From: an uncultured Dehalococcoidia bacterium
GTDB taxonomy: Bacteria > Chloroflexota > Dehalococcoidia > Lucifugimonadales > UBA3495
Length of the DNA stretch: 18,901 nucleotides
Direction of reading: 5' to 3'
Assembly (NCBI GenBank): GCA_950072105.1
Contig: CATMOE010000066.1
Location: 1 to 18,901 of the forward strand
The position numbers and the translations under genes were made by a program. Positions 1,886 through 18,157 of this stretch are shown piece by piece. The notes beneath the pieces are model-generated. The model was given only the letters and a program-made list of their open reading frames with translations, made no database searches and was not told where the DNA came from. Every line of letters begins with the position of its first letter. Position 1 is the stretch's first letter.

Positions 1886-3427
1886 CTAAAGCCCCTGTTT
1901 GATAAATTCGGCGGCCCGCTCGGCAATCATCATTGTAGTGACGTTAGTGTTGGCCCGGACCACGTTGGGCATCACCGACGCGTCCACCACCCGTAGGCCT
2001 TCCACCCCGCGCACTTTCAGGCGTTGGTCGACGACGGCTTCCTGGTCGCTATCTGGGCCCATCTTGCAGGTTCCCGAGATATGGAAAGAAGAACTCACAT
2101 TTCGGAGCAGCCAGTCGTCCAATGTTTGGTCCGAAACTAGGTCGGTATCTTGCGGGGCGGTCCGTTCTTCGATGATCCCAGAATACGCCGTGTCTTGTAA
2201 AAGGTCGACGCATTTTCGAATTGCTTCCCTCAGTCGCTCGCGGTCCCAAGGGTCCTCAAGGTAATGGTAGTCCATGCTGGGCTGAGCCTGGGGGTCGGCC
2301 GAAGTTAGGCGAAGCTCACCCTTTCCAACTGCCAGGTACAGTCCGCAGTTGACTGTATGGCTTGGGTCGTCGCCTTCTTTGATGACGGTGTTCATAGACG
2401 CCGGAGAGAGAATCATATCATTGGGGGTATTGGAGCCGGTGGCAGTAAAACGTAGGCGCAGTGCCCTCATCCCATTTGGATCGTCATAGGTGCCCGTTTT
2501 TACCAAAAATTTTACGGTCACATTTGGGTGGTCTCGCATGTTCTGCCCAACACCGGGACGGTCGGCTACCACTGGAATGCCAAAATCCGCAAGGTGACCT
2601 GCCGGACCTATTCCCGATAGCAACAACAACTGTGGAGAGGCTACTGCACCGGCACACAAGATAATCTCGTCGCCTTCTACAGTGAAGCGTTCGCCGCCAC
2701 TCTCCACCTCTAAGCCGGTGGCTCGGTGGCCGGAAAAGACGATCTTTAGCGCCTGTACCCCGGCCTTTACGGTTAAATTGAGCCGGTGACGACTGGGGTC
2801 GAGGTAGGTTAACGCCATGCTCATTCGAACCCCATCAACGTTGTTTTCGGCTCGGAGACCGATGCCTGTCGAATCTGGCTCGTGTATATCTGGGAAGTCC
2901 GGGTATCCGGCAGCAATGCAGGCTTGGTAGAATGCCTCTTGGGAGGGCGGCCACGTCTCGCGGTGGTGACGCCGTACCGGCACAGGTCCCTCGGTGCCGT
3001 GGAAATCACCAGAATAATCTTCGTCGCTTTCGAGCTTTCGGAAAAACGGAAGGCAGTTGATATAAGACCAATCGTCGTTGCCCAAGGACGCCCACGTGTC
3101 GAAGTCCTCGGGAGCCCCCCTTATAAAGGTCTGGCCGTTTATCGAACTGGTGCCGCCCATGGCCTTGCCGCGCGGCACTGGCATTGGTTCGGGTCGTTGG
3201 GAGGTGGCCCTACCGGAGTACGACCAGTTGAATGGGCCGCCGGCTTTCCTCGCTTCCAGATTGAGCATCCCCCAGCCGTATTTCAACGAGTCTGGCAACT
3301 GTTCAAAATCCGGATATTCGGGTCCTGCTTCCAGCAACAGAACTGAACGCTCCGTGTCCTCCGACAATCTGGAGGCCACGATGCAGCCCGCTGTTCCACC
3401 ACCGACAACTATTTGGTCGTACTTCAT
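1886..3427 (-). CDS. GMC family FAD oxidoreductase (choline dehydrogenase/MftG-like), ~513 aa
   Basis: N-terminal YDQIVVGGGTAG Rossmann motif, RGKAMGGTSSING, VGQNMRDH, catalytic His (FHISGTCKMG), VVDASVMP and RANTN. Start moved to ATG 3427 (MKYDQ), which follows an AAGGA RBS. Confidence 0.92.
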   Translation of the reverse strand: MKYDQIVVGGGTAGCIVASRLSEDTERSVLLLEAGPEYPDFEQLPDSLKYGWGMLNLEARKAGGPFNWSYSGRATSQRPEPMPVPRGKAMGGTSSINGQTFIRGAPEDFDTWASLGNDDWSYINCLPFFRKLESDEDYSGDFHGTEGPVPVRRHHRETWPPSQEAFYQACIAAGYPDFPDIHEPDSTGIGLRAENNVDGVRMSMALTYLDPSRHRLNLTVKAGVQALKIVFSGHRATGLEVESGGERFTVEGDEIILCAGAVASPQLLLLSGIGPAGHLADFGIPVVADRPGVGQNMRDHPNVTVKFLVKTGTYDDPNGMRALRLRFTATGSNTPNDMILSPASMNTVIKEGDDPSHTVNCGLYLAVGKGELRLTSADPQAQPSMDYHYLEDPWDRERLREAIRKCVDLLQDTAYSGIIEERTAPQDTDLVSDQTLDDWLLRNVSSSFHISGTCKMGPDSDQEAVVDQRLKVRGVEGLRVVDASVMPNVVRANTNVTTMMIAERAAEFIKQGL

Positions 3428-3524
3428 GATTAAATTCCTTCGCAGGCATTGCTTCAAGTGGCTAACACTATATCAGGTACTAGAATCAAATAATGAAGTG
3501 ATCATTACCGCTGGTTCAACAGTT

Positions 3525-3844: not shown

Positions 3845-4274
3845 TGTAAATCATCAGCACATTTGGGAGAGTGTGGGTGAAGATCGGGATGGACGGTTGG
3901 GGGATATTGTCCCGACTTCAGAATCGATATAGAGTTTCGATTCCGAAGGAGCCAACATGGTCAACGCAAACACCAACTTTGATCGGGCAGACGCCAACGC
4001 CAGACAGGTCATACGCCGCACCAAGCAGATCACCCGGCGTCGGATTAGCCCAGAAGAAAAGGTGCGAATCGTCATTGAGGAAATCCGTGGAGAGATCAAG
4101 GTCACTTCCCTCTGGAGACGGGAAGACATTGCTAGCAACGTCTATTACAAATGGCTCAAGGATTTCATGGAAGCTGGGAAAGGCCGGCTCGAAGGAGCCA
4201 CCCTCTAGGAGGCCGGCCGGGCCGAGGTCCGATCCCTGCAGCGGAAGAACGAACGGCTGAAGGAACTGGTGGGG
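3845..4274 (+). mobile_element. Truncated IS3-family element: putative left end plus orfA with an internal stop; orfB absent
   Basis: A TGT-starting candidate left end (TGTAAATCATCAGCACATTTGGGAGAGT, 3845) is followed by an RBS and an orfA-like HTH protein. No DDE orfB is seen. Confidence 0.7.
3957..4274 (+). pseudogene. IS3-family transposase OrfA (HTH + leucine zipper), interrupted by TAG at 4206-4208
   Basis: TRRRISPEEKVRIVIEEIRGE...YYKWLKDFMEAGKGRL. The same frame continues past the TAG as EAGRAEVRSLQRKNERLKELVG, a typical OrfA zipper. AAGGAG RBS. Confidence 0.82.
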
Positions 4275-4463
4275 GCCTGGAACGCGGCGACACTGGAGGA
4301 GCGCCACCAACTGCTAACCATGATGCTGGACGCCGTATATGTGGACATGACCCAGGGCCTGGTACTGGGACTTAAACCCAAGCCCGAGTTTCTACTGCTC
4401 TTCAACCTGGGTGAGCCCGTCACAACGGGAGACTCGGCTTTAGTTACTGGAGGGGTGGAGTAG
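4275..4463 (+). pseudogene. Probable C-terminal fragment of a large serine recombinase/integrase
   Basis: AWNAATLEERHQLLTMMLDAVYVD...LKPKPEF resembles the W..AT.EER..LL..V.VD C-terminal segment of large serine recombinases (recognised by eye). It ends at the att-like repeat 4457-4485. Confidence 0.5.
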
Positions 4464-4726: not shown

Positions 4727-4981
4727 ATGGAATTTCACATCTCGTGCCATCACACTCCTGACAATTGTGCCGTCCACCGAAGTGAGCCGCCAATCACTAA
4801 AAGCTGGGCTGAACACTGCAAAGAAGTCGGTGTGACATTCATCAAAGGTGGTGTTAACGCACCTCAGCATAACCATTTCATATTTGTGGAAACAGACGAT
4901 ATGGTTAAATTACGGAATTTGATGCAACCATTTATAGGGTATTGGGATGTTGTAATAACCCCCGTCATGGATTTACCCTAA
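4727..4981 (+). CDS. Small His/Cys-rich hypothetical protein, 84 aa (possible DUF3303/GYD-like alpha-beta barrel)
   Basis: Strong RBS GGGAGG just upstream of the ATG and a downstream terminator. The pattern H..F.FVETDD...L..L....G...V.ITPV suggests a ferredoxin-like barrel. Confidence 0.75.
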   Translation: MEFHISCHHTPDNCAVHRSEPPITKSWAEHCKEVGVTFIKGGVNAPQHNHFIFVETDDMVKLRNLMQPFIGYWDVVITPVMDLP

Positions 4982-5516: not shown

Positions 5517-6059
5517 TTAACGGTCTGTTAAGTGTTCTATCGCCTGGGGGGTTGCTATATGGGCTCGCTCCAATAACTGCTCATGGGTTAAGATGACGAT
5601 TGGATGATCGATAATCGCCAATCCGTAGTCCGGGTTACCCCTCATGCGGGACATGGCCCTCGCTTGACTAACGAAAGGTCTGGTAGTCAGGACTACCGAA
5701 GGCGTACCCAGTAACTCGGTCTCCATCGCGTCGTGCACACTGCACGCGGTGCAGGACCCTCATTCGGCTGTGGCATGAATCGCCACATCACATTTGGCGG
5801 CGAACTCTTTCAGCGCCTCGGAGTTGGCGGGCCACTGGTGGCTGCCCTTGTTGTATTCCACGGTGCCCTTGATGCCGTATCTCTCTCTTATGTTAGTGGC
5901 TATCATCTGCAACAACTCTTCGGAGTGAGGTTTGTTATTGGACAGCAAGCCCAAGGTCTTTCCATCTAATGTATGGGGGCGCGGAGCCAAGAGAGCCGGG
6001 CCGTGATCGCTCTCGTCTCTGGGATCCAAGGTTACTAACTTATTCTCAAGGTTCGTCAT
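5517..6059 (-). CDS. UGSC-family selenoprotein, 180 aa, Sec at residue 100 (TGA 5760-5762)
   Basis: The ORF-track fragments 5760..6059 and 5517..5738 are in the same frame and join as ...HATAE-TGA-GSCTACSVHDA..., giving the U-G-S-C motif. The family-like segments LDGKTLGLLSNNK, G.P.V...T..F and HP are on either side. Confidence 0.88.
5727..5759 (-). promoter_or_regulatory. Putative bacterial SECIS element
   Basis: After the UGA the sequence is GGGUCCUGCACCG-CGUGC-AGUGU-GCACG-ACGCG. A hairpin at +14..+28 has a G in the first two positions of the loop. Confidence 0.55.
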
Positions 6060-6066
6060 ATTCCGG

Positions 6067-7098
6067 TCAGCTCCTTACCTCGATCTTTCTAGTCACTGGA
6101 CGACTGTTGCCCCAGGAACCGATAACGTCGACATAGACGCCAGCCGCACCTCCTGCGGCAAACAAGGTGATCCGGCTGGGGTCGGCTACGCAACCGACGA
6201 GTTGGTCTTTGTCTGGGAACCTGTCTGGATGTTCCACTCGCCTCCAGGCGATCCATTCCCTTGCAGGTAGCCGCGCTTTTTCCCATAGGAACTCTTGTAC
6301 CTGCTGCTTGGACCAGCCCGCTTCATCCACGTATTGCATCACTTCCGGACTCAGGGCCACGAATACCTCAGAGACAGACGGACCTAGACCGATCATGGCA
6401 TGTGCTACGCCGGCAAGAAATGATTCAGGGTCTTTACCACCGAAGACGCTGACTTGGAGTGGCGAGTAGGCGGCAACAACTGTAACTGCGCTGGAGCTGC
6501 CATCGAACCCCTTATCTACTGCCAATGATGGCCAGTTGCCCGCATCAAGGTTCTCAGCGAAGCAGAAAGTGTACTTGCCCGGGTGGCCGAAGGTACTGTT
6601 ATCCATCTCCTGTGGGATCGAGCCATAGAAGTTCGTCTTGACCAGGTTGACCGCCCTTCCGATTGATGCGTTGGCATGATTGCTTGGCCCCATAAGTCCG
6701 GTAGAGGAGTTCATACCGATCTCTTGAGCGTAATCTCCACTCACCAACACCAACACGGTAACTCCGTTGGTGGAGGTGCTACTAGCATGCAAGTTAAAGA
6801 CCGGTTCACAACAAGCTGCTATCGCTGATGTGACCACCGGAAAATATTCAGGGCGACAACCGGCCATGACGGCGTTGATGGCGACTTTTTCAGCGGTAAT
6901 GTGTTTCTGGCGGATCGATTCAAAGCCGATTATTTGGTCTGGGGGTAACCCCGAAAACTCCAACATAGCTCTTACCCGGTCTTCGGTAGGCGGCATTATG
7001 GGTAAGCCGTCAGTCAGGTTGGCTCCCAAGTAATATTCTTGGACTTGTTCCCAGTCCGCGAATTGGTGCTGTAGTGAGGTCAGGTTTTGGGATGTCAT
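6067..7098 (-). CDS. Conserved hypothetical protein with TDGLP..PPT motif (usual partner of UGSC proteins), 343 aa
   Basis: Motifs TDGLPIMPPT, EKVAINAVMAGC.PEYFPVV, ANASIGRAVNL and GHPGKY..CFAEN. Start revised to ATG 7098 (AAAGGAG upstream). Only 7 nt separate it from the UGSC gene. Confidence 0.85.
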   Translation of the reverse strand: MTSQNLTSLQHQFADWEQVQEYYLGANLTDGLPIMPPTEDRVRAMLEFSGLPPDQIIGFESIRQKHITAEKVAINAVMAGCRPEYFPVVTSAIAACCEPVFNLHASSTSTNGVTVLVLVSGDYAQEIGMNSSTGLMGPSNHANASIGRAVNLVKTNFYGSIPQEMDNSTFGHPGKYTFCFAENLDAGNWPSLAVDKGFDGSSSAVTVVAAYSPLQVSVFGGKDPESFLAGVAHAMIGLGPSVSEVFVALSPEVMQYVDEAGWSKQQVQEFLWEKARLPAREWIAWRRVEHPDRFPDKDQLVGCVADPSRITLFAAGGAAGVYVDVIGSWGNSRPVTRKIEVRS

Positions 7099-7463: not shown

Positions 7464-7553
7464 ACCCGCGTGGCCCGTGACTATTATCCGGCTTCGAAGG
7501 CCGTGCTTACGCAACCGGAATGGGGCGAAGAGAAGCGGAAACTTCTGGGTCAT
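7464..7553 (-). pseudogene. N-terminal stub of an Old Yellow Enzyme/NADH:flavin oxidoreductase gene
   Basis: AGGAGG RBS plus MTQKFPLLFAPFRLRKHGLRSRIIVTGHAG, matching the OYE-family start (..P.LF.P..L....L.NRI). Similarity is lost after ~30 aa and the frame stops at 7344. Confidence 0.65.
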
Positions 7554-7723
7554 GGCTGGGCCTCCTAATACCTTGATATTTAATAATGGTTGTCTCCGTC
7601 CTGTCACCAAAATTACCCCCGAACGTTTTCCACCCCAGGTCCGGGCCCACGTTTATGTTCCTGGAATATTTCCACTATGTTCCCAGGTTCTACGGGGACG
7701 ACTTCGGATTTTAGCCCCTCCGG

Positions 7724-7752
7724 TTGACGCTGCATCTAGCCTCAGATACACT
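7724..7752 (+). promoter_or_regulatory. Sigma70-type promoter of the mgs-glnT-sox operon
   Basis: TTGACG (7724-7729), a 17-nt spacer, then TACACT (7747-7752), 82 nt upstream of mgsA. Confidence 0.7.
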
Positions 7753-7834
7753 TGGTCTCATTCAGCAATGCCTGTGATGGCGGCGTTCATGGTTGCTGAA
7801 TATTGATCCACCGGGCGGTCGAGGATAGTAATTC

Positions 7835-8749
7835 ATGTGCGGCGTTGGCGGCATTCTTTACAAGAAAATCGGGAACCAGGGCACATCCCCCGTAGGTAAG
7901 GACCTGGTCAAGATGCTGGAGTCCATGACCCATCGGGGTCAAGACTCCAGCGGTTTCACCGTGGTTGGTGAAGATATTGACGGCGATCTGGTGCTCCGCA
8001 TCTGGACGGATGACCCGGCTCAGGCTGCGGATGTACTGTCTATGGCAGAAGAGGCGCTGCAGAAGGCTGGCGGTGTGGTGAGAACCCGTAGCGCCTGGGG
8101 TCAGTTTTTGCGGCTGACAATCGATTACGAGGGAGAGATACCTGCTCTGGCGGAAGCGATTTTGAACACGCCAGGGGTAGCCCTACACAGCATAGGTGAA
8201 ACCTCCGAAGTCATCAAAGACGTGGGCACACCCGTCGCGATGGACGGCATCCACTCCTTGAGTCAGATGAGGGGCACCCACGGCATTGGACACGTTCGCA
8301 TGGCCACCGAGAGCCGAGTCGACGTTAACCACGCCCATCCTTTCTGGGCGTATCCTTTCACTGACGTTACCGTGGTCCACAACGGCCAGCTAACCAACTA
8401 CCACAAGCTAAAACGCATGTATGAAGACCAAGGCCACCGTTTTCAGACCGGCAACGACTCTGAGTTGATCGCCGTCTACCTCGCCGACAAACTTGCCAAC
8501 GGAGACACGTTGGACAGCGCTTTGCGGAGTTCGCTGAGCGACCTTGACGGAACGTTCACTTACCTGGTGTCCACCAAAGACGGCCTAGGCTACGCCAAAG
8601 ACCAATGGTCGGCCAAGCCGCTGGTGACCATGGAGACTGACGATATTATCGCTATAGCATCTGAAGAGATTGCGCTCCGGGGTGTTTTCAACCAGGAAAT
8701 CGACCGGGTAGAGCCTCAAAACAACGAGGTCATGACTTGGTTATTGTAG
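7835..8749 (+). CDS. mgsA: Class II glutamine amidotransferase-like protein; N-methylglutamate synthase subunit A (GlxB-like)
   Basis: N-terminal MCG nucleophile, HRGQDSSG, GHVRMATES, AHPF, HNGQ and NDSE motifs. It is the first gene of the glxBCD triad. Confidence 0.85.
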   Translation: MCGVGGILYKKIGNQGTSPVGKDLVKMLESMTHRGQDSSGFTVVGEDIDGDLVLRIWTDDPAQAADVLSMAEEALQKAGGVVRTRSAWGQFLRLTIDYEGEIPALAEAILNTPGVALHSIGETSEVIKDVGTPVAMDGIHSLSQMRGTHGIGHVRMATESRVDVNHAHPFWAYPFTDVTVVHNGQLTNYHKLKRMYEDQGHRFQTGNDSELIAVYLADKLANGDTLDSALRSSLSDLDGTFTYLVSTKDGLGYAKDQWSAKPLVTMETDDIIAIASEEIALRGVFNQEIDRVEPQNNEVMTWLL

Positions 8750-9420
8750 ACGCCGCAGGGCTGACCACCCGGGAACTGAACGGCCGCCTTAAGGAGTTGG
8801 CAGCCAGTGGCCAGGAAATCACTGTTCTGAACCCTCATGCAGGGCACAACATTGCCGTGGGGATATTCGAAAGTTGCAGAATACAAATAACCGGCAGTGT
8901 GGGTTACTACGCCGCAAGCCTGCTGGACGGTCCCGAGGTCGCCATCGATGGCAATGCGGGCTGGGCCTTGGGTGAGAACATGATGGCTGGCAAGATCACA
9001 CTGACCAAAGATGCCGGAGCCTCGGTAGGCTCGACCATGCGAGGAGGAGAGTTGTTCGTGGGCGGTAACGCCGGGGCCCGGGCCGGCATATCCATGAAGG
9101 GCGGCACCCTCATCGTTGGAGGCAACGCCGGGTTCCTCACCGGATTTATGATGCAGAAGGGCCGAATCATTGTTTGCGGCGACGTGGGTGAGGCGGTGGG
9201 GGATTCCATGTACGAAGGCGCGATCTACGTGGGAGGAGAAATCGGCTCTTTGGGCACCGATGCCAAGACCGAGGAAATTGGTGAGGATGAGTTGTTGGAT
9301 ATCCTGGCAACTTTGGAAAGTCACGGAATTAAACAGAGGTACACATTCACCAAAGTGGTTTCGGCCAAAAAGCTATATCACTTCGACTCCCTGGAACGCC
9401 TGGAAAAGACTGTTATCTGA
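8737..9420 (+). CDS. mgsB: GXGXG beta-helix protein; N-methylglutamate synthase subunit B (GlxC-like)
   Basis: Repeated G.AG...G.M.GG...V.G units (GltB C-terminal/FwdC-like) and SLGTDA. The TTG start overlaps the mgsA stop. Confidence 0.85.
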   Translation: MVIVDAAGLTTRELNGRLKELAASGQEITVLNPHAGHNIAVGIFESCRIQITGSVGYYAASLLDGPEVAIDGNAGWALGENMMAGKITLTKDAGASVGSTMRGGELFVGGNAGARAGISMKGGTLIVGGNAGFLTGFMMQKGRIIVCGDVGEAVGDSMYEGAIYVGGEIGSLGTDAKTEEIGEDELLDILATLESHGIKQRYTFTKVVSAKKLYHFDSLERLEKTVI

Positions 9421-9516
9421 CCACAAGTTCGCAATCTCACTGCAGAGTACGCAAATGCGCGGAAGAACACTACTTGAGTGCCCGGCGATGAGTATCGGTG
9501 CAGGCAAGGATCTTTT

Positions 9517-10812
9517 ATGGTAATGGGCAGCAGCCAGTTATGGCCACCCTGGGTGATGGAGGATATCCATGCCAAGTCGGAGCTTGGTCGCTACCGGATC
9601 CGGGGATTCAGCACCTTCCAGAAAGTAACCCACTTTGACGACCTCACCTTCCTGTCGACCGGCCTGACTCGCTTCCCACTGGAAGGTTACAAGGAACGCT
9701 GCAACACCCGGACGGTCATAGGCGCTCGTTATGCCGAGAACCCCTTGGTACTGGATACACCCATCTACATAAGCGGAATGAGTTACGGCGCCCTCTCGGC
9801 CAATGCCAAGACAGCCCTCGGCAAAGGCGCGGCCATGGTCGGTTCCGCCAGTTGCACCGGAGACGGAGGCCAGCTGCCCAGCGAAAGAGAAGCGGCGGAC
9901 AAGCTGATCTACCAGGTCTTGCCCAGCCGCTACGGTTTTAATCCCCACCACCTGGCCCAAGCCCAAGCCATTGAAATCGTGGTGGGCCAGGGCGCCAAGC
10001 CCGGCACCGGCGGTCTTCTCATGGGTGTCAAAGTGCTCGACGACATTGCCGACATGCGGGACCTGCCGCAAGGGATTGACCAGCGCAGCCCGGCCAGGCA
10101 TCCTGACTGGCTAGGACCTGACGACTTGGCTGTTAAAATCGAGCAACTGCGGGAGGCGACAGATTGGCGAATCCCCGTCCATGTCAAGTTGGGGGCGTGC
10201 CGCGTCGGCGACGACGTTAAGCTGGCTGCCAAGGCAGGGGCCGACGCCATAGTCATCGATAGCATGGTGGCGGGCACCGGCGCTTCGGCGGAGGTGTTAA
10301 TCGAGCACAGCGGCATTCCCACGGTCCCGGCCATCGTGATGGCCCGGGAAGCGCTTCGTGAATTGGGACTTTACGGCAAGGTCAGCCTAATTGCTTCCGG
10401 TGGCATCCGCCATGGGGCGGACGCCGCCAAGGCTCTGGCCCTGGGGGCCGACGCCGTGGCCATCGGCACTGCGGGCTTGATTGCATTGAATTGCAACAAG
10501 GAAATTACCGAATCGGACTTTGAATCGGAGGTAGGCGTGCCCGCTGGCTTCTGCCACCACTGCCATACCGGCAAATGCCCGGTGGGAATCGCCACCCAAA
10601 ACCCCGAATTGACCAAGCGCCTGGACCCAGACGAGGCGGCCGAGCGGGTGGCCAATTTCCTGAACTCCATGACCATGGAAATGGCCCTCCTCACCCGGTC
10701 TTTAGGCAAAAGTGATGTGCATAGCCTGGAGCCCGAGGACTTGGCCGCCCTCACCATAGAGGCTTCGGCCATGGCCCGCGTGCCCCTGGTTGGGACCAAC
10801 AAGGTTTATTGA
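9517..10812 (+). CDS. mgsC: FMN-binding glutamate-synthase-family protein; N-methylglutamate synthase subunit C (GlxD-like)
   Basis: GMSYGALS, GQGAKPG.GG.L, RHPDWLGPDDL..KI, SGGIR.GAD.AKALALGAD and the Fe-S motif CHHCHTGKCPVG. The ATG at 9517 follows AAGGA (the ORF track starts at GTG 9478). Confidence 0.88.
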   Translation: MVMGSSQLWPPWVMEDIHAKSELGRYRIRGFSTFQKVTHFDDLTFLSTGLTRFPLEGYKERCNTRTVIGARYAENPLVLDTPIYISGMSYGALSANAKTALGKGAAMVGSASCTGDGGQLPSEREAADKLIYQVLPSRYGFNPHHLAQAQAIEIVVGQGAKPGTGGLLMGVKVLDDIADMRDLPQGIDQRSPARHPDWLGPDDLAVKIEQLREATDWRIPVHVKLGACRVGDDVKLAAKAGADAIVIDSMVAGTGASAEVLIEHSGIPTVPAIVMAREALRELGLYGKVSLIASGGIRHGADAAKALALGADAVAIGTAGLIALNCNKEITESDFESEVGVPAGFCHHCHTGKCPVGIATQNPELTKRLDPDEAAERVANFLNSMTMEMALLTRSLGKSDVHSLEPEDLAALTIEASAMARVPLVGTNKVY

Positions 10813-10987
10813 GCGATCAGCCGTCAACGATCAATGGTGGCCATTTGCCCTTTAAACTTCGTCAATCCGGAGAGGGCCGAAATTCATATGCGGGCAATTC
10901 TGGGCAGGGCAAAAGTAATGGCAGGAGAGTTTCTTACCGGGAGTGTCTCTCAGCCGATGGCTAACAGGTCTCTAAAGGAGAAATTTC

Positions 10988-12346
10988 ATGGCCACCATTG
11001 AAGAAATTCGCCGGCGAATGGACGAAGACAAGATCGAGTATGTCCTGACCCAGTTCGTGGACATCAATGGCTCACCAAAGGTCAAGATGGTCCCAGCTTC
11101 CCATGTGGATGACGTGGTGGACACCGGCGCCGGGTTCGCAGGTGGGGCGCTTCCGGGCATGGGTCAGGGTCCCCACTCCCACGACATGCTGGCCCGAATC
11201 GACCTTGACACCTACACCCTGGTGCCTTGGACCGAAGGCGTCGTCCGCTTTGCCTGCGACCTGTACGTGGACAACGAACCCCACATGTTCTGCCCTCGCC
11301 AGAACTTCAAGCGGGTGCTTTCCAACCTGCGGGCCGATGGCTACGTCTTCAACGTAGGCATTGAGCCGGAGCATTTTCTGGTCACTAGGAATGGCGACGG
11401 CTCCATTAAAGTCTGGGACCCCAACGACGTGGACACTCTGAGCAAAGCTTGCTACGACTTCAAAGGCATCGCCAATGTCATGGACTATCTGAGGGACATG
11501 ATGGACGGCATAAAGCGGGTGGGTTGGGATACCTACCAATCTGACCACGAAGACGCCAACGGACAATATGAAATCAATTTCGTCTACGATGACGCCTTGG
11601 TAACGGCAGACCGCTACACCTTCTTCAAGATGATGTCCAGCCAGTACGCCCAGAAGTACGGGGCCATCGCCACCCACATGGCCAAGCCCTTTACAGACCG
11701 CACCGGCAGCGCAGGGCATATCCACTACCACCTGGCCGACGCCCTAACCGGGGAGAACGTGTTCCTTGACGAAGAAGATCCCAGAGGGCTGGGCCTCTCG
11801 GAGACGGCCTATCACTTTATCGGTGGCATCCTCGCCCACGCTCCGGCTCTATGCTGCGTGATGTCTCCCACCGTCAATTGCTACAAGCGCCTCCAAGTTG
11901 GCCCGGCGTTGATGGGTTCAACCTCAGGGTTTCTGTGGACACCAGCCTTCGTTTCCTACGGCGACAATAACCGGACTCAAATGATTCGCACCGCCGGTCC
12001 TGGGCATCTGGAAGACCGGACAATGTCAGCGGCCTGCAACCCCTATCTGTCGTTCGCCGCCTACGTTACGGCGGGCATGGACGGCATCCGGCGCAAGCTG
12101 GACCCGGGCGAACCTAACCTGGGCAACCTATACGACTTGGGGCTGGAGGAAATCCGGCGCCGGGGAATCCGCCTGCTGCCACAGACCCTAGCGGAAGCCC
12201 TGCAAGAGCTAAAGCAAGACGAACTAGTTCAGTCATCATTGGGCGTAATCTACGACGAGTTTACCATGGTAAAAGAGGGAGAATGGCGGGAGTATCACCG
12301 CCAGGTTACCCAGTGGGAGCTTGATCGATATTTGACGATGTTTTAG
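10988..12346 (+). CDS. glnT: Type III glutamine synthetase-like protein (GlnT), likely gamma-glutamylmethylamide synthetase (GmaS)
   Basis: QFVDING.PK.KMVP, GIEPEHFL, YQSDHEDANGQYEINF, MAKPF, PTVNCYKRL and YGDNNRTQMIR motifs. AAAGGAG RBS. Adjacent to mgsABC. Confidence 0.88.
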   Translation: MATIEEIRRRMDEDKIEYVLTQFVDINGSPKVKMVPASHVDDVVDTGAGFAGGALPGMGQGPHSHDMLARIDLDTYTLVPWTEGVVRFACDLYVDNEPHMFCPRQNFKRVLSNLRADGYVFNVGIEPEHFLVTRNGDGSIKVWDPNDVDTLSKACYDFKGIANVMDYLRDMMDGIKRVGWDTYQSDHEDANGQYEINFVYDDALVTADRYTFFKMMSSQYAQKYGAIATHMAKPFTDRTGSAGHIHYHLADALTGENVFLDEEDPRGLGLSETAYHFIGGILAHAPALCCVMSPTVNCYKRLQVGPALMGSTSGFLWTPAFVSYGDNNRTQMIRTAGPGHLEDRTMSAACNPYLSFAAYVTAGMDGIRRKLDPGEPNLGNLYDLGLEEIRRRGIRLLPQTLAEALQELKQDELVQSSLGVIYDEFTMVKEGEWREYHRQVTQWELDRYLTMF

Positions 12347-12360
12347 CGGTCTCCAGAGAT

Positions 12361-12609
12361 ATGGCTTTTCTTCTAAACTGCCCCAACTGTGGGGAACGAA
12401 ACGTCCATGAATTCCGCTTCGGCGGCGAAGCAACGTCCCGGCCTACGCCCAACAGCACGCCGGACGATTGGATCAGGTATTTCTACAACCGAGGCAACGT
12501 GGCCGGCGTGCAGCGAGAATGGTGGAACCACCGCTATGGTTGCCGTAAGTGGTTCTTCGCCCTGCGCGACACTGTGAGCAACCAGATACAAGAAACTTTG
12601 TGGCCGTGA
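12361..12609 (+). CDS. soxD: Sarcosine oxidase/NMG dehydrogenase delta subunit (Zn-binding)
   Basis: CPNCGER..EF.FGGE, RGN.AG..REWW.H.YGCRKWF...RDT. Confidence 0.92.
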   Translation: MAFLLNCPNCGERNVHEFRFGGEATSRPTPNSTPDDWIRYFYNRGNVAGVQREWWNHRYGCRKWFFALRDTVSNQIQETLWP

Positions 12610-12640
12610 GCAATCGCGTGCATTGTATTCGCCGAGGCGG

Positions 12641-12674
12641 AAATCCCCCCAACACCCCTTTAACAAAGAGGGGC
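12641..12674. repeat. REP-like palindromic element
   Basis: AAATCCCCCCAACACCCCTTTAACAAAGAGGGGC: a C-run plus a CCCCTTT/AAAGAGGGG hairpin in the soxD-soxA spacer. Single copy in this window. Confidence 0.45.
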
Positions 12675-12684
12675 TTCTAGAGCT

Positions 12685-15633
12685 ATGGCCGGCGATAGCC
12701 ACAACCAAAGACTCAAGCCCCAGCCCACTGAGTTGATTGACCGCAACAAATCTTTGGAGTTTCAGTTTGATGGCCGGCGAGTCAACGCCCATCAAGGCGA
12801 CACAGTTGCTTCCGCTCTCCACGCCGCAGGTGTGGCCATCCTGAGCCGGGGCTTCAAGTACCACCGGCCCAGGGGCTTTCTGTGCGGGGCGGGCCGCTGC
12901 CCCAACTGCCTGGTTAACGTGGACGGTGTGCCCAACGTTCGCGCATGCACTCAGCAGGTCCGGCAGGCCATGAATGTCCGGCACCAGAACGCTTGGCCTT
13001 CCCTAAACCTTGACTTCCTATCTGTCCTAGACCGCCTGCAATGGTTGATGCCGGTGGGCTTCTACTACAAAGCGTTTCACCGGCCGAAGTTCCTTTGGGG
13101 CCTGGCCCAACGAGTTATTCGCCGGGTCGGCGGGCTAGGGAGCGTCGACATTGATGCAGATCCGGTCACCACCTACCGCCACCGGTACCACCACTCAGAC
13201 GTGGCGGTGGTCGGCGGCGGTCCGGCTGGATTGGCGGCCGCATTAGGAGCGGCGGAGCAGGGCGTAGGGGTGACCCTGATCGACGACCAACCTGAATTGG
13301 GCGGTCACCTGCTCTTCAACTCCAAGGACTTCAGCGGTCTTCCAGACTTGGTTGACGGTTCCGGTCCGGAGGTCGCCAGCAGGCTGATTCAACGGGTAAT
13401 AGAGTCGGCCAATATCGAGGTTATTGCAGGGGCAACGGTATTTGCCCAATACCAGGACAATCTGCTGACCATTCTCCACGGCGATGAGCTAGTTAAGGTC
13501 CGGGCCAAGAGTGTCGTATTGGCCACCGGTACCTACGAAGTGCCTTTGCAGTTCCAGAACAACGACTTGCCGGGCATCATGCTGACCACAGCCGCCCAAC
13601 GCCTGATTCATCTTTACGGCGTCAAGCCGGGCAACACCGTGGTGGTGGCGACGGTTAACGACCAAGCTTACCAGGCTGCCCTGGACCTGCTGAACGCAGG
13701 CGTGGAAGTGGCTGCCGTCGTGGACGTGCGGCCAACATATTCCCACGGACTGGAAGCCGCCACTACCCTAATTTCCCGCGGAGTGCCGTTATTAACTGGT
13801 CACGCCATAACCCACGCCACAGGAAAGAAAAGAGTGAGGGCAGTGGTTGTGGCCAGTGTGAGTCCAAGAAGCCCTGATAGCCCTGCCCGCCGCATAACCT
13901 GCGATCTGGTTTGCATGGCCGGTGGCTTCCAGCCCGCCAACGCGTTGCTCCAACACGCTGGTGGTTCGCTGGATTACGACGAGAAATCGGGCGAGGGGAT
14001 TCCCCATGATTTGCCTAACGGCGTTTACGTAGCGGGCGAAGTAACAGGGGTCCACGATTTGGCAACCGCTTTGCTTCAAGGTAGGCTAGCTGGATTGGAG
14101 GCCGCAAGGCTGGTTTCAGGCCCGGGTTCCAACCAAGAAGAGATTGGCCGGGTCCGGCAGCGGCTAAACGGTTTGGAGACCGAACCAGGAATCATACCTT
14201 CATCGCCGGTCTCAGCTCCACCGGTCGAGGCTCCGACAGAAAGCCGGGGAAAGAAAATCTTCGTCTGCTTCTGCGAGGATGTGACAGTCAAAGACATCTC
14301 TCAAGCTATCGAAGAAGGGTTCGAGGACATCCAAATGCTAAAGCGGTACAGTACCGCTACCATGGGTCCTTGCCAGGGAAAGATGTGCCTGAAAGCCCTG
14401 GTTGGCTTATGCGCCCAACAGACCGGACGCACCATTGGCGACACGGGCGGCACCACGGCTAGGCCCCCGGTACAACCAGTACCACTAGCCGCCCTGGCCG
14501 GGCCCTCCCACATGCCGGTCAAGCGAACGCCCATGGACCAGAATCATCGAGACCTGGGCGCCTCAATGGTTGATCTTGGGCCCTGGCAGCGGGCCCACAG
14601 CTACGGCTCTCCCCAAGAGGAATGTCTGGCCGTTCGCCAACGGGTCGGCATCATCGACGTGACCACCTTGGGCAAGTTGGAGGTCACCGGCCGTGACGCC
14701 GGCGCATTATTGGATAAGGTGTATACCCACCACTTTTCCAACCTCCGAGTCGGCAGAATCCGTTACGGTCTGCTTTGCTCCGACAACGGCACCATCATGG
14801 ACGACGGCACTGTGACCAAGTTGGCCGAAGACCGTTACTTCGTGACCACTACCACGGGCAACGTGGACCTGATTGAAGAGTGGTTCAACTGGTGGCAGGC
14901 CGGTACCGGCTCCTGTGCCCACGTTACCAACGTCACCTCGGCCTACGCTGCCGTAAACGTAGCCGGCCCCCGGGCCCGGGATACTCTCACCAAACTAACG
15001 GACGTCGACCTCTCAGCGCAATCTTTCCGGTACATGAGATCGGCGCAAGGGGCCGTTGCCGGGGTACCAGCCATCTTATTGCGCATCGGTTTCGTGGGAG
15101 AAACGGGATGGGAGATTCACGTTCCCGCAGAGTACGGCCAACATGTTTGGGAAACCATCATGGAGGCCGGGAGGGAATTTGGCATCGCTCCGTTTGGACT
15201 GGAGGCACAGCGCATTTTGCGGCTGGAGAAGATGCACGTGATTGTCGGCCAGGACACCGATGCTGCCTCCAATCCGCTGGACAGCGGCATGGACTGGGTT
15301 GTGCGATTCGACAAGGAAGACTTCATAGGCAGAGAAGGCCTGAAATTGGCATCGGAACAGGGCCCGCGCAACAAACTTGTGGGCTTCATCATGCAAAATT
15401 GGCACGTGCCTGAGGACGGCGTGCCCGTGGTGTCGGGCGGCAAGCCGATCGGCAAGGTAACTAGCGCCCGTTTTAGTCCCACCATGAACAAGGGATTCGG
15501 CCTAGCCTGGGTTCCGGCAGAACTCGCCCAAGACGGTACGCAGATCAGCGTCCTGGTTAATGGCGTACCCCAGCCAGCTCAGGTCGCCCTTCAGCCCTTC
15601 TACGACCCGGAAGGGGAACTTTTGAGGCAATGA
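12685..15633 (+). CDS. soxA: Sarcosine oxidase/NMG dehydrogenase alpha subunit (2Fe-2S-like + NAD-binding + BFD-like + GcvT folate domain), 982 aa
   Basis: GDTVASAL, RGFKYHRPRG, GGGPAGL, NNDLPGIM, KRYSTATMGPCQG, DDGTV, RIGFVGETGWEIH and LRLEK motifs. Confidence 0.93.
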   Translation: MAGDSHNQRLKPQPTELIDRNKSLEFQFDGRRVNAHQGDTVASALHAAGVAILSRGFKYHRPRGFLCGAGRCPNCLVNVDGVPNVRACTQQVRQAMNVRHQNAWPSLNLDFLSVLDRLQWLMPVGFYYKAFHRPKFLWGLAQRVIRRVGGLGSVDIDADPVTTYRHRYHHSDVAVVGGGPAGLAAALGAAEQGVGVTLIDDQPELGGHLLFNSKDFSGLPDLVDGSGPEVASRLIQRVIESANIEVIAGATVFAQYQDNLLTILHGDELVKVRAKSVVLATGTYEVPLQFQNNDLPGIMLTTAAQRLIHLYGVKPGNTVVVATVNDQAYQAALDLLNAGVEVAAVVDVRPTYSHGLEAATTLISRGVPLLTGHAITHATGKKRVRAVVVASVSPRSPDSPARRITCDLVCMAGGFQPANALLQHAGGSLDYDEKSGEGIPHDLPNGVYVAGEVTGVHDLATALLQGRLAGLEAARLVSGPGSNQEEIGRVRQRLNGLETEPGIIPSSPVSAPPVEAPTESRGKKIFVCFCEDVTVKDISQAIEEGFEDIQMLKRYSTATMGPCQGKMCLKALVGLCAQQTGRTIGDTGGTTARPPVQPVPLAALAGPSHMPVKRTPMDQNHRDLGASMVDLGPWQRAHSYGSPQEECLAVRQRVGIIDVTTLGKLEVTGRDAGALLDKVYTHHFSNLRVGRIRYGLLCSDNGTIMDDGTVTKLAEDRYFVTTTTGNVDLIEEWFNWWQAGTGSCAHVTNVTSAYAAVNVAGPRARDTLTKLTDVDLSAQSFRYMRSAQGAVAGVPAILLRIGFVGETGWEIHVPAEYGQHVWETIMEAGREFGIAPFGLEAQRILRLEKMHVIVGQDTDAASNPLDSGMDWVVRFDKEDFIGREGLKLASEQGPRNKLVGFIMQNWHVPEDGVPVVSGGKPIGKVTSARFSPTMNKGFGLAWVPAELAQDGTQISVLVNGVPQPAQVALQPFYDPEGELLRQ

Positions 15634-16361
15634 GCATTACCGCCCAAAACCAGGCCCAGTTCAATCCGATCAGGCGTAGCGCCATGCACCATAAGCACTT
15701 GCTATTGGGTGCGTTAATGGTGGAGCGTGATGGTTGGCAGCAACCGGCACACTTCGGCTCGGCAGAGGCTGAAGCAAAGCACTTGCGGGAAGCGTTGGGC
15801 ATTTGCGACATCAGCCCACGGGCCAAGTTCGTCATAAAGGGGGACCAAGCGGAACAACTTGTCTCCCGGGTTTTCCCCACAGCCTTGATTCCGGACGTAG
15901 GCGAAATAAGCGTGGAAGCCCATGCTGGCGGAATCCATGGCGCGAATGCGGCATTATGCCGACTGGCCCAAGACGAAATTATATGCGTGGCAACTACCGG
16001 ATTGGCGACATGGTTGGCCGACGGCTTGAAAGACGATTCTGGGCAATGCGTTCATTCCCTGGACATATCGTCCGCTTTGGCTGGAGTGAGCATTGCCGGC
16101 CCCCAGGCCAGTCACTTGCTAGCTATGATCTCTGAGTTGAACACGTCTGACGCGGCATTCCCCAATCTGCGTTGCGCCCAGTCCAAGTTTGCCGATATCC
16201 ACGGCACCTTGCTCAGAATCGACCTTAGCAACCTGCCCAACTACCAATTGTACTTTGGGAGGGAGTTCGGAGATTACATGTGGGACGCCTTAGTGGAAGC
16301 TGCCGAGGTTTGCGGCGGCGCACCCGTGGGCTTTGAGGCAATGGATCAATTACAAGGCTGA
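15630..16361 (+). CDS. soxG: Sarcosine oxidase gamma-like subunit (GcvT N-terminal-like), 243 aa
   Basis: ATGA overlap with soxA. GcvT-like features: RRSAMH..H, DGWQQP, ICDISP..K, IAGP.A, REFGDYMWDAL. Confidence 0.75.
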   Translation: MSITAQNQAQFNPIRRSAMHHKHLLLGALMVERDGWQQPAHFGSAEAEAKHLREALGICDISPRAKFVIKGDQAEQLVSRVFPTALIPDVGEISVEAHAGGIHGANAALCRLAQDEIICVATTGLATWLADGLKDDSGQCVHSLDISSALAGVSIAGPQASHLLAMISELNTSDAAFPNLRCAQSKFADIHGTLLRIDLSNLPNYQLYFGREFGDYMWDALVEAAEVCGGAPVGFEAMDQLQG

Positions 16362-16401
16362 CGGAATTTCACCGCAGGGCACGCCGAGATGGAAGACATA
16401 T

Positions 16402-17619
16402 ATGTTCCAGATATTTGCAAAGAATAGGATGTGGCGGAAGCAGCCACTGAAGCACCGCTACGAGGTGGTCATTATCGGCGGCGGCGTCCACGGATTGTCT
16501 ACGGCCTACTACTTGGGAAAGCTGGGCGTGACCGATGTGGCGGTGTTGGACAAAGGCTACCTGGGCGGAGGGGCTAGCGCTCGGACCACCGCTATTATCC
16601 GCTCCAATTACCTGACGCCCGAAGGGATTCCCTTCTTCAACGAAAGCGTCAAGCTGTACGAGGGCTTGGCCAAGGAGCTGAACTTTAACCTGCTGTTCAA
16701 CCAAATGGGCCGTTTGGACTTGGGCCATACCGACTCGGCGGTCTACGGGTTGAGGATGCGCACCGAATTCAACCGTATCTTGGGGGTGGACAGCCGCCTG
16801 ATCGGCCCAAAGGAGATAAAAAAGCTTGTTCCATCCATAGATTTGAGGGAGGGCAAGCACTTTCCCATCTTGGCAGCCCTGTACCACCCGCCCTGCGGCG
16901 TTATCCGCCACGATGCCGTTGTTTGGGGTTACGGTCGTGGCGCCGACAGACAAGGTGCGGAGCTACACCCCTTTACCGAAGTTACCGGCATCGACCGCAC
17001 CAATGGCCGGGTAACCGGGGTGGAGACCAGCCAGGGTCTGGTAAAAGCCAACACCGTGATCAGTGCCACGGCGGGATGGAGCTCCACGATCGCCAAGATG
17101 GTCGATTTGGAATTGCCCATTACCACCCATGCGCTGCAAGCAATGGTTACCGAGCCACTAAAACCGTTCTTGGACAAGACCATATCTTCGGCCAATCTCC
17201 ACGCCTATGTGTACCAGACCGACCGGGGTGAGGTGGTAATCGGCGGAGGCGTGGACCCCTACCCCAGCTACAGCCAACGCTCCACCTTCCAACAAATGGA
17301 GGAACTGGCGGCCAACACTCTGGAGATGTTCCCTTGTCTGAAAAATGTCAACGTGCTACGCCAATGGGCCGGGCTGTGCGATATGACTCCCGACTACGCG
17401 CCTATCTTGGGCTCGGTGGACGGCATTGAAGGCTTCATCTTGTCCTGCGGTTGGGGAAGTTGGGGTTTCAAAGCCGCCCCGGTGGCAGGCAAACGTATCG
17501 CTGAGCTTATTGCCACTGGAGAGACGCCGGAGTTGATAAAACCTTTCTCTCTTTCCAGATTTCGAGAGGGAAATCTGGTCAACGAAAGGGCCGCCGCCCC
17601 CGCCGCAGCGATACATTAG
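16402..17619 (+). CDS. soxB: Sarcosine oxidase/NMG dehydrogenase beta subunit (FAD), ~405 aa
   Basis: IIGGGVHGLSTAYYL, GGGASARTTAIIRSNY, RHDAVVWGY (the FMN-His motif region), LQAMVTEP, RQWAG.CDMTPD and GWGSWGFKA. Start revised to ATG 16402. Confidence 0.92.
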   Translation: MFQIFAKNRMWRKQPLKHRYEVVIIGGGVHGLSTAYYLGKLGVTDVAVLDKGYLGGGASARTTAIIRSNYLTPEGIPFFNESVKLYEGLAKELNFNLLFNQMGRLDLGHTDSAVYGLRMRTEFNRILGVDSRLIGPKEIKKLVPSIDLREGKHFPILAALYHPPCGVIRHDAVVWGYGRGADRQGAELHPFTEVTGIDRTNGRVTGVETSQGLVKANTVISATAGWSSTIAKMVDLELPITTHALQAMVTEPLKPFLDKTISSANLHAYVYQTDRGEVVIGGGVDPYPSYSQRSTFQQMEELAANTLEMFPCLKNVNVLRQWAGLCDMTPDYAPILGSVDGIEGFILSCGWGSWGFKAAPVAGKRIAELIATGETPELIKPFSLSRFREGNLVNERAAAPAAAIH

Positions 17620-18081: not shown

Positions 18082-18157
18082 TAAGACGTAGCGCAGTGGC
18101 TAGCGCGCTTCGTTCGGGACGAAGAGGCCGGTGGTTCGAGTCCACTCACTCCGACCA
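18082..18157 (+). tRNA. tRNA-Pro(CGG) with a non-pairing 5' acceptor strand (possible pseudo-tRNA or att copy)
   Basis: D-arm GCGC-AGTGGCTA-GCGC, anticodon arm CTTCG-TTCGGGA-CGAAG (CGG at 18115-18117), T-arm GGTGG-TTCGAGT-CCACT and 3' CACTCCG-ACCA. Positions 1-7 are TAAGACG instead of the CGGAGTG needed for pairing. Confidence 0.8.

Follow-up and report, generated by a model that had tools for sequence, protein, structure and literature searches.

A predicted UGSC-family selenoprotein gene, its conserved partner gene, and their multiplication in a probable SAR202-type genome

The stretch of DNA analysed here (the window, 18,901 nucleotides) carries on its minus strand a gene of the UGSC family at 5517..6059, which encodes 180 aa when an in-frame TGA is read as selenocysteine (Sec). 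The reading frame starts with an ATG at 6059, places the predicted Sec at residue 100, and ends with a TAA stop at 5517-5519. Upstream on the same strand lies a 343-aa gene (6067..7098), the 'Unknown_1' of Zhang and Gladyshev 2008 and hereafter the partner, which ends 7 nt before the UGSC start. On the downstream side of the UGSC gene and on the opposite strand are a DUF3303 gene (4727-4981) and a transposase HTH fragment (3957-4463), and beyond them is a minus-strand GMC oxidoreductase gene (1886-3457; mycofactocin dehydrogenase MftG, TIGR03970, 410 against a cut-off of 387), situated upstream of an acyl-CoA ligase gene. On the other side, a divergent plus-strand cluster (7835-17619) comprises genes for a glutamine amidotransferase, for GXGXG and glutamate-synthase domains, and for a type III glutamate-ammonia ligase (TIGR03105 above cut-off), besides soxD/A/G/B-like genes; it resembles the N-methylglutamate pathway of methylamine use. 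Beside an LRR gene at the contig end there is a plus-strand Rfam tRNA match (18088-18147; 44 bits, model positions 7-64) where ARAGORN finds none, which may be a tRNA or a tRNA remnant and possibly an integration site. A scan of promoters and terminators gave results at chance level.

The surroundings of the pair are not conserved. At three orthologous loci the UGSC and partner genes are kept together and no neighbour found on this contig is kept, so that context names no substrate; the N-methylglutamate-type cluster, considered as a substrate clue, was rejected, as it does not stand beside any of these three loci. The flanks of the 11 other copies in the same genome (64 of 107 ORFs scanned) hold mostly catabolic enzymes, which vary from copy to copy.

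The UGSC gene appears in a conventional translation as two ORFs in a single minus-strand frame, one of 99 aa (6059..5760, beginning with ATG) and one of 73 aa (5738..5517, beginning with GTG), with only the TGA and the GSCTACS codons between them; read through, they give ...ATAE-U-GSCTACSVHD.... The strand is not stated in an earlier note on this DNA. The joined product matches PF24696 (UGSC) with 162.4 bits (cut-off 25, E 1.5e-47), residues 11-178 covering profile positions 3-171 of 172. Searched separately, the halves match the same profile side by side (3-90 and 94-171), which places the split beyond chance, and the suggestion of the earlier note that the two ORFs form one split UGSC-family protein is borne out by the shared frame, the profile score, and the adjoining halves. 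The narrower model NF041046, searched with U scored as C, is fully covered (profile 1-147) at 116.6 bits (E 9.2e-34), below its curated cut-off of 125; judged by sequence, the gene is filed under PF24696 and outside the NF041046 equivalog.

A 'UGSC-containing protein' was described by Zhang and Gladyshev in 2007-2008 (PMC1976440, PMC2398784). With that family the present gene has in common a whole-length profile match, the UGSC motif, exchange of Sec and Cys, a SECIS, and association with Unknown_1; it differs in scoring below the NF041046 cut-off and in having its partner as a separate, unfused upstream gene. We regard it as a genuine predicted UGSC selenoprotein, a member of an already catalogued family that lacks a function. 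All 120 of the near homologues listed end at ATAE, the residue preceding the TGA being their last, and these are gene-caller products; databases hold this gene in two pieces.

Behind the TGA, at +14..+28 (minus strand, 5732..5746), lies a stem-loop of six pairs with the loop GUG (CGUGC(A)/(U)GCACG), the candidate SECIS. Across 41 TGA copies (39 of them distinct), 98.3% of the cells of this stem are paired and six are compensatory, counts of cells and not of independent events, as kin share changes; none of 500 shuffles scored as high, and the best slid register reaches 76.9%. The pattern recurs in an independent set (genome_contigs; 75 motif matches from 80 loci), in which 71 of 71 TGA copies keep 5-6 of the six pairs together with the loop G and all four Cys copies keep just 3-4. 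Genome-wide, the full six-pair stem occurs in the SECIS register of 2 of the 1127 TGA-ended open frames of at least 200 codons. The SECIS-like hairpin proposed in the earlier note therefore stands, on covariation and on the difference between TGA and Cys copies.

The folding energy of this hairpin is unremarkable (z +0.67, -0.76, +0.67), and the case for the SECIS is made by conservation and covariation, not by energy. The minimum-energy fold of the 63-nt stretch that begins at the TGA is a competing hairpin, CUGCAC/GUGCAG (+6..+20; minus strand, 5754-5740), which overlaps the SECIS. The earlier note had recorded this structure too, and it is indeed present in the sequence; comparative support for it is absent (80.3% paired, without a single compensatory cell, and matched by all 500 shuffles), and it was rejected as the SECIS.

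The TGA itself (5760..5762, minus strand) falls after a predicted strand (residues 92-98) and at the start of a predicted helix (101-116). The residue aligned with it, where Trp or Arg would speak against Sec, was read from the best 150 cluster representatives of the homologues, 136 of which span the site, the 14 non-spanning ones being set aside. Cys occupies position 100 in 132 of the 136 and Trp in none, which agrees with the statement that the family has Cys homologues. Since most full-length representatives carry Cys, the family as a whole does not require Sec. Position 103 (codon 5751..5753, minus strand), the conserved second residue of U-x-x-C and a putative resolving thiol, is Cys in 133 of the 136 and, in a separate count, invariant in 41 of 41. 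The genome, of 4.08 Mb at 92% completeness and 6% contamination, contains selA (550 bits), selB (352) and selD (385), each above its cut-off and the last itself carrying a TGA, as well as tRNA-Sec(TCA) on contig C5, so that the Sec machinery sought was found throughout.

Further evidence comes from public sequencing runs, 18 of the 20 that hold the sequence being recorded as RNA, and the best RNA holders being marine. Marine metatranscriptome contigs from three of four runs show no alternative letter over 5739-5856, which indicates that the TGA is not an assembly error; these contigs extend just 21 letters beyond the TGA, below the bar for bridging. Contigs of all four runs examined cover the UGSC and partner genes, a sign of presence and no measure of expression, and an uncovered stretch at 7487-7780 with loose contig ends beside it proves nothing on transcription. 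The stretch 5723-5762, which includes the TGA and SECIS, varies so little between paralogues that contigs of the metatranscriptomes break and branch there; the loose ends run into other UGSC copies, and the stretch could act as a family-wide probe.

From the Cys homologues, the Sec machinery, and the covarying SECIS, we consider it nearly certain that the TGA is recoded as Sec in the SelB-type manner at a conserved SECIS, as the earlier note had proposed. The alternative, that there is no recoding and the TGA truly terminates translation (in a pseudogene or between two small genes), stems from a sequencing error, or encodes Trp under code 4, can point to the 120 gene-caller products ending at ATAE and to the ordinary stability of the hairpin; it is extremely improbable and already largely refuted, since the machinery is complete, the aligned position is Cys and never Trp, a TGA stands in all 150 matches listed from relatives, the SECIS is kept behind TGA and decayed behind TGC or TGT, the upstream partner gene terminates normally at a TGA, and three independent runs give the same letters.

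The partner has no Pfam or NCBIfam family match. Its AINAVMAGC stretch corresponds, by eye, to the Unknown_1 domain in Fig. S1A of PMC2398784, and a UGSC/Unknown_1 fusion is already published there (Fig. S1). Among 80 partner loci from many phyla, 76 have a UGSC gene within a flank of up to 7 kb, mostly directly adjacent. Conserved partner residues include DGLP, C81, T110, N143, R148, D166, K175, C179 and E182, with C81, C179 and the polar set kept in at least 90% of 108 aligned sequences. Pattern matching finds an upstream in-frame CxxC, atypical in one case, in 60 of the 80 frames and none in the partner at this locus; in the one example scanned, Pfam did not recognize the fused CxxC domain. 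The near-obligate pairing or fusion makes it very probable that UGSC and its partner act together, and the best reading of the two minus-strand genes is a single operon encoding a two-subunit selenoenzyme, whose subunits may be in physical contact. The AlphaFold2 model of the partner (pLDDT 93.0) has no clear structural match, a sequence search of solved structures returned no significant match for it, and the ESM Atlas returned unnamed clusters only, one of them auto-named 'Thioredoxin family protein'.

Two further arrangements of the pair were observed. At one orthologous locus (L103:7001-11317) the partner gene is broken by a transposase, which also sets it apart from a UGSC gene that is intact. 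Elsewhere selA adjoins the pair (L129:4686-6140); the selA cluster covers 3 of 77 distant loci, a lead only, as neighbour clustering of these loci is muddied by antisense ORF calls in GC-rich DNA.

Neither the adjacent partner gene nor the multiplication of the pair is in the earlier note. Twelve UGSC matches, with a single TGA apiece, were counted in the genome, as were 12 matches of the partner, of which 11 adjoin a UGSC gene (in either order) and one is fused. UGSC occurs in all 35 genomes searched from the same family, with 1-24 matches and a median of 6 (matches being distinct from copy numbers), in 12 of 24 genomes from other families of the order (1-5 matches), and in 7 of 79 genomes drawn from across the phylum (1-2 matches; one unpublished genome was left out). 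The 150 TGA-bearing matches listed from relatives are accompanied by 122 others. For 11 pairs, a comparison that leaves out C30 with its partner cut by the contig end, the paralogues show a median identity of 33% for UGSC (19-85) and 39% for the partner (32-93), from which we conclude that they are old. The distances of the two genes across these pairs correlate only weakly (rho 0.34, Mantel p 0.07), a point noted against the enzyme reading set out below.

The closest named relatives of the sequences are Dehalococcoidia and SAR202 records, and with the marine RNA holders they suggest a SAR202-type host. A pangenome study of SAR202 lists five major expansions on the basis of COG counts (PMC6946804), and UGSC resembles those of FMNO (COG2141), enolases (COG4948) and ring-hydroxylating dioxygenases in consisting of old, diverged paralogues within one lineage; unlike them, it is smaller (1-24 matches against up to 114 FMNOs), involves two genes, is predicted to depend on Sec, and is split by gene callers. 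The words 'selen' and 'UGSC' are absent from the main text of PMC6946804 and PMC10444878, whose supplements could list UGSC or partner genes as hypothetical, and the accessible text of the UGSC papers (PMC1976440, PMC2398784) describes no expansion comparable to 12 copies in a genome. In a literature search with most subscription papers and the SAR202 supplements outside its scope, no link between SAR202 and selenoproteins or between UGSC and Chloroflex was found, and the literature on SAR202 and selenocysteine was off this topic by title.

The AlphaFold2 model of UGSC (pLDDT 95.7) consists of alternating strands and helices with the Sec at a helix start behind the third strand. Its structural matches are generic and flavodoxin/Rossmann-like (Z up to 11.3, none outstanding), and no thioredoxin is found among the matches listed. 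As shown computationally, UGSC is modelled as an alpha/beta (flavodoxin/Rossmann-like) domain with U100-x-x-C103 at a helix start. The published reading of UGSC assumes a Trx-like fold, which may still hold although the model fits it badly.

Profile comparison (hhalign) aligns UGSC residues 75-155 with the Sec-bearing end of proteins of the GrdB/PrdB type, the two Sec positions coinciding. With 25 sequences the probability is 93.7 (score 50.9; E 2e-7, a pairwise and not a library-wide value), and with six sequences it is 89 and 88; among the controls, reversing the alignment gave a score of 14.4, three pairs of unrelated proteins scored 12.9-18.5, and none of 20 block shuffles exceeded 27.0. 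The likeness covers just 74-99 columns, a strand-Sec-x-x-Cys-helix-E..G.P-strand region, and extends to the apparent use of a larger partner subunit. Against it stand the first 70 residues, which do not align, the failure of UGSC to match PF07355 at E 0.01 (at E 1 the contig is absent among the 7 matches in the genome), and the partner, which is not the pyruvoyl subunit GrdE/PrdA (PF09338). In a sequence search of solved structures no match was significant for UGSC, and for the GrdB/PrdB alignment the best E was 0.011.

The genome carries GrdB-type proteins of its own. Its three PF09338 matches adjoin its three GrdB genes, and none of them is on this contig. Other selenoprotein candidates include these three TGA-bearing GrdB genes beside GrdE-type genes, a GrdA gene with a TGA, and four short PF07355 matches, three of which have TGA-P-x-C (GrdB, GrdA and PF07355 contigs: C45, C78, C13, C28, C105, C31, C25 and C140). 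The selenoproteome is large, and by sequence the Grd genes equip this marine Chloroflexota genome with a set of Stickland-type reductases. About 3 kb from one GrdB/GrdE pair, at G000:C45:3454-7263, are divergent two-subunit class I fumarase/tartrate-dehydratase-like genes together with an FrdA-like gene.

By analogy with these reductases, we tentatively propose that UGSC and its partner form a two-subunit Sec/Cys enzyme of reductive cleavage, a reading to which we give slightly less than an even chance. The Sec of PrdB in proline reductase acts on a substrate that PrdA binds, attacking its alpha-carbon, and replacing this Sec with Cys gave an inactive mutant (PMC11229817). As in PrdA/PrdB, the partner would bind and activate a small organic substrate; U100 would attack a substrate carbon, breaking a carbon-heteroatom bond; Cys103 would then release the product, leaving an Se-S bridge; and this bridge would be re-reduced by thiols, namely C81 and C179 of the partner together with a CxxC domain, which many bacteria have as a fusion with the partner and which would here have to be supplied in trans (Trx/TrxB). 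Of the 11 other copies, two have TrxB-like genes no more than about 4 kb away, in a scan that took in 64 of the 107 ORFs in the flanks. As regards substrate activation, it counts against this reading that the partner does not belong to the pyruvoyl subunits. The 12 old and diverged pairs would most likely serve different substrates, as in other catabolic expansions of SAR202. More broadly, and with more doubt, we suggest that UGSC and Unknown_1 could represent a pyruvoyl-free, two-subunit branch of glycine/proline-reductase chemistry that has expanded in one SAR202 family to up to about two dozen substrate-specific pairs per genome.

Three other functions were weighed. UGSC could be a general thiol or peroxide oxidoreductase, as the published reading has it, in which a selenol-thiol/Se-S cycle at U-x-x-C reduces disulfides, sulfoxides or peroxides and the partner is the reductant relay or the target. 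We consider this unlikely: the modelled repeating strand-helix architecture, with its Sec behind the third strand and its flavodoxin/Rossmann-like matches, does not favour it, UGSC has no thioredoxin-type Pfam match, and twelve diverged pairs would suit substrate diversity better than housekeeping redox.

An improbable further alternative is covalent catalysis of a non-redox kind, with Sec as a strong nucleophile forming a seleno-ester or seleno-ether intermediate in group transfer or hydrolysis (of acyl, CoA-linked or ring compounds, for example) and Cys103 merely tuning it. CoA-transferase III genes beside 2 of the 11 other copies and amidohydrolase genes beside 3 of them, as well as thiolases and lactonases, agree with such a role, though these enzyme families are widespread in SAR202 genomes. 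The near-invariance of Cys103 (133 of 136) tells against it, as do the CxxC fusions, which indicate an electron relay.

The third alternative, less probable still, is a metal or Fe-S site formed by U100, C103 and C106 or by cysteines of both subunits, the pair then being a lyase or (de)hydratase similar to class I fumarate hydratase. A redox or metal-binding site had also been suggested in the earlier note from the third Cys, C106 (codon 5742..5744, minus strand). The U-x-x-C-x-x-C spacing is present here and in 62 of the 71 TGA copies of the genome_contigs set, in which one subfamily is heavily represented, and the partner has two near-invariant cysteines. Yet position 106 holds Cys in only 34 of the 136 diverse spanning homologues (W 39, A 22, S 11, G 8) and in 5 of the genome's 12 copies (W 5, G 2), and the SECIS constrains its codon, whose third base pairs in the stem; the C21-G27 pair has become G-C in 5 of the 39 distinct sequences, which are the copies with TGC changed to TGG (Cys to Trp). 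The third Cys as part of a conserved site is not supported: what is conserved is U-x-x-C, and the case for a three-ligand metal site, which is not a family trait, is weak.

The partner model gives a structural lead in the same direction, its ten best Foldseek rows being Fe-S fumarate hydratase chains (E about 1e-5; class I alpha, PF05681; 7xky_A, 5l2r) and VIA-align matching 7xky_A over 187 residues (Z 5.6, rmsd 5.3). The Foldseek matches have a TM of 0.26-0.28 and an rmsd of 16, the Z is typical of unrelated folds, no beta subunit lies nearby, and profiles fail to support the relationship (hhalign probability 1.1-1.4 against 21 fumarase-alpha sequences). The resemblance to a fumarase alpha subunit is kept as a lead only.

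The gene by itself amounts to an annotation correction, and the broader picture weighs more. What is new here, as far as sequences indicate, is the lineage-wide and hidden UGSC expansion, the comparative support for the SECIS, and the demotion of the third Cys. Since 2007-2008 UGSC has counted among the function-less selenoprotein families that are most abundant in aquatic settings; with a fixed partner, a likeness to GrdB/PrdB, and a list of conserved residues, it becomes a defined two-protein assay. SAR202 strains are now cultured (PMC10444878), and expression and selenium dependence are thereby open to test. The expansion suggests that an abundant ocean group devotes many genes, and selenium, to UGSC chemistry in a way that is invisible in COG-based surveys. 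If the pyruvoyl-free branch proposed above is real, it would amount to a catabolic expansion that depends on selenium and has gone unrecognised, the reductive equivalent of the known oxygenase expansions; it would have been overlooked since gene callers truncate all copies at the TGA, and it would tie the breakdown of marine dissolved organic matter to the supply of selenium.
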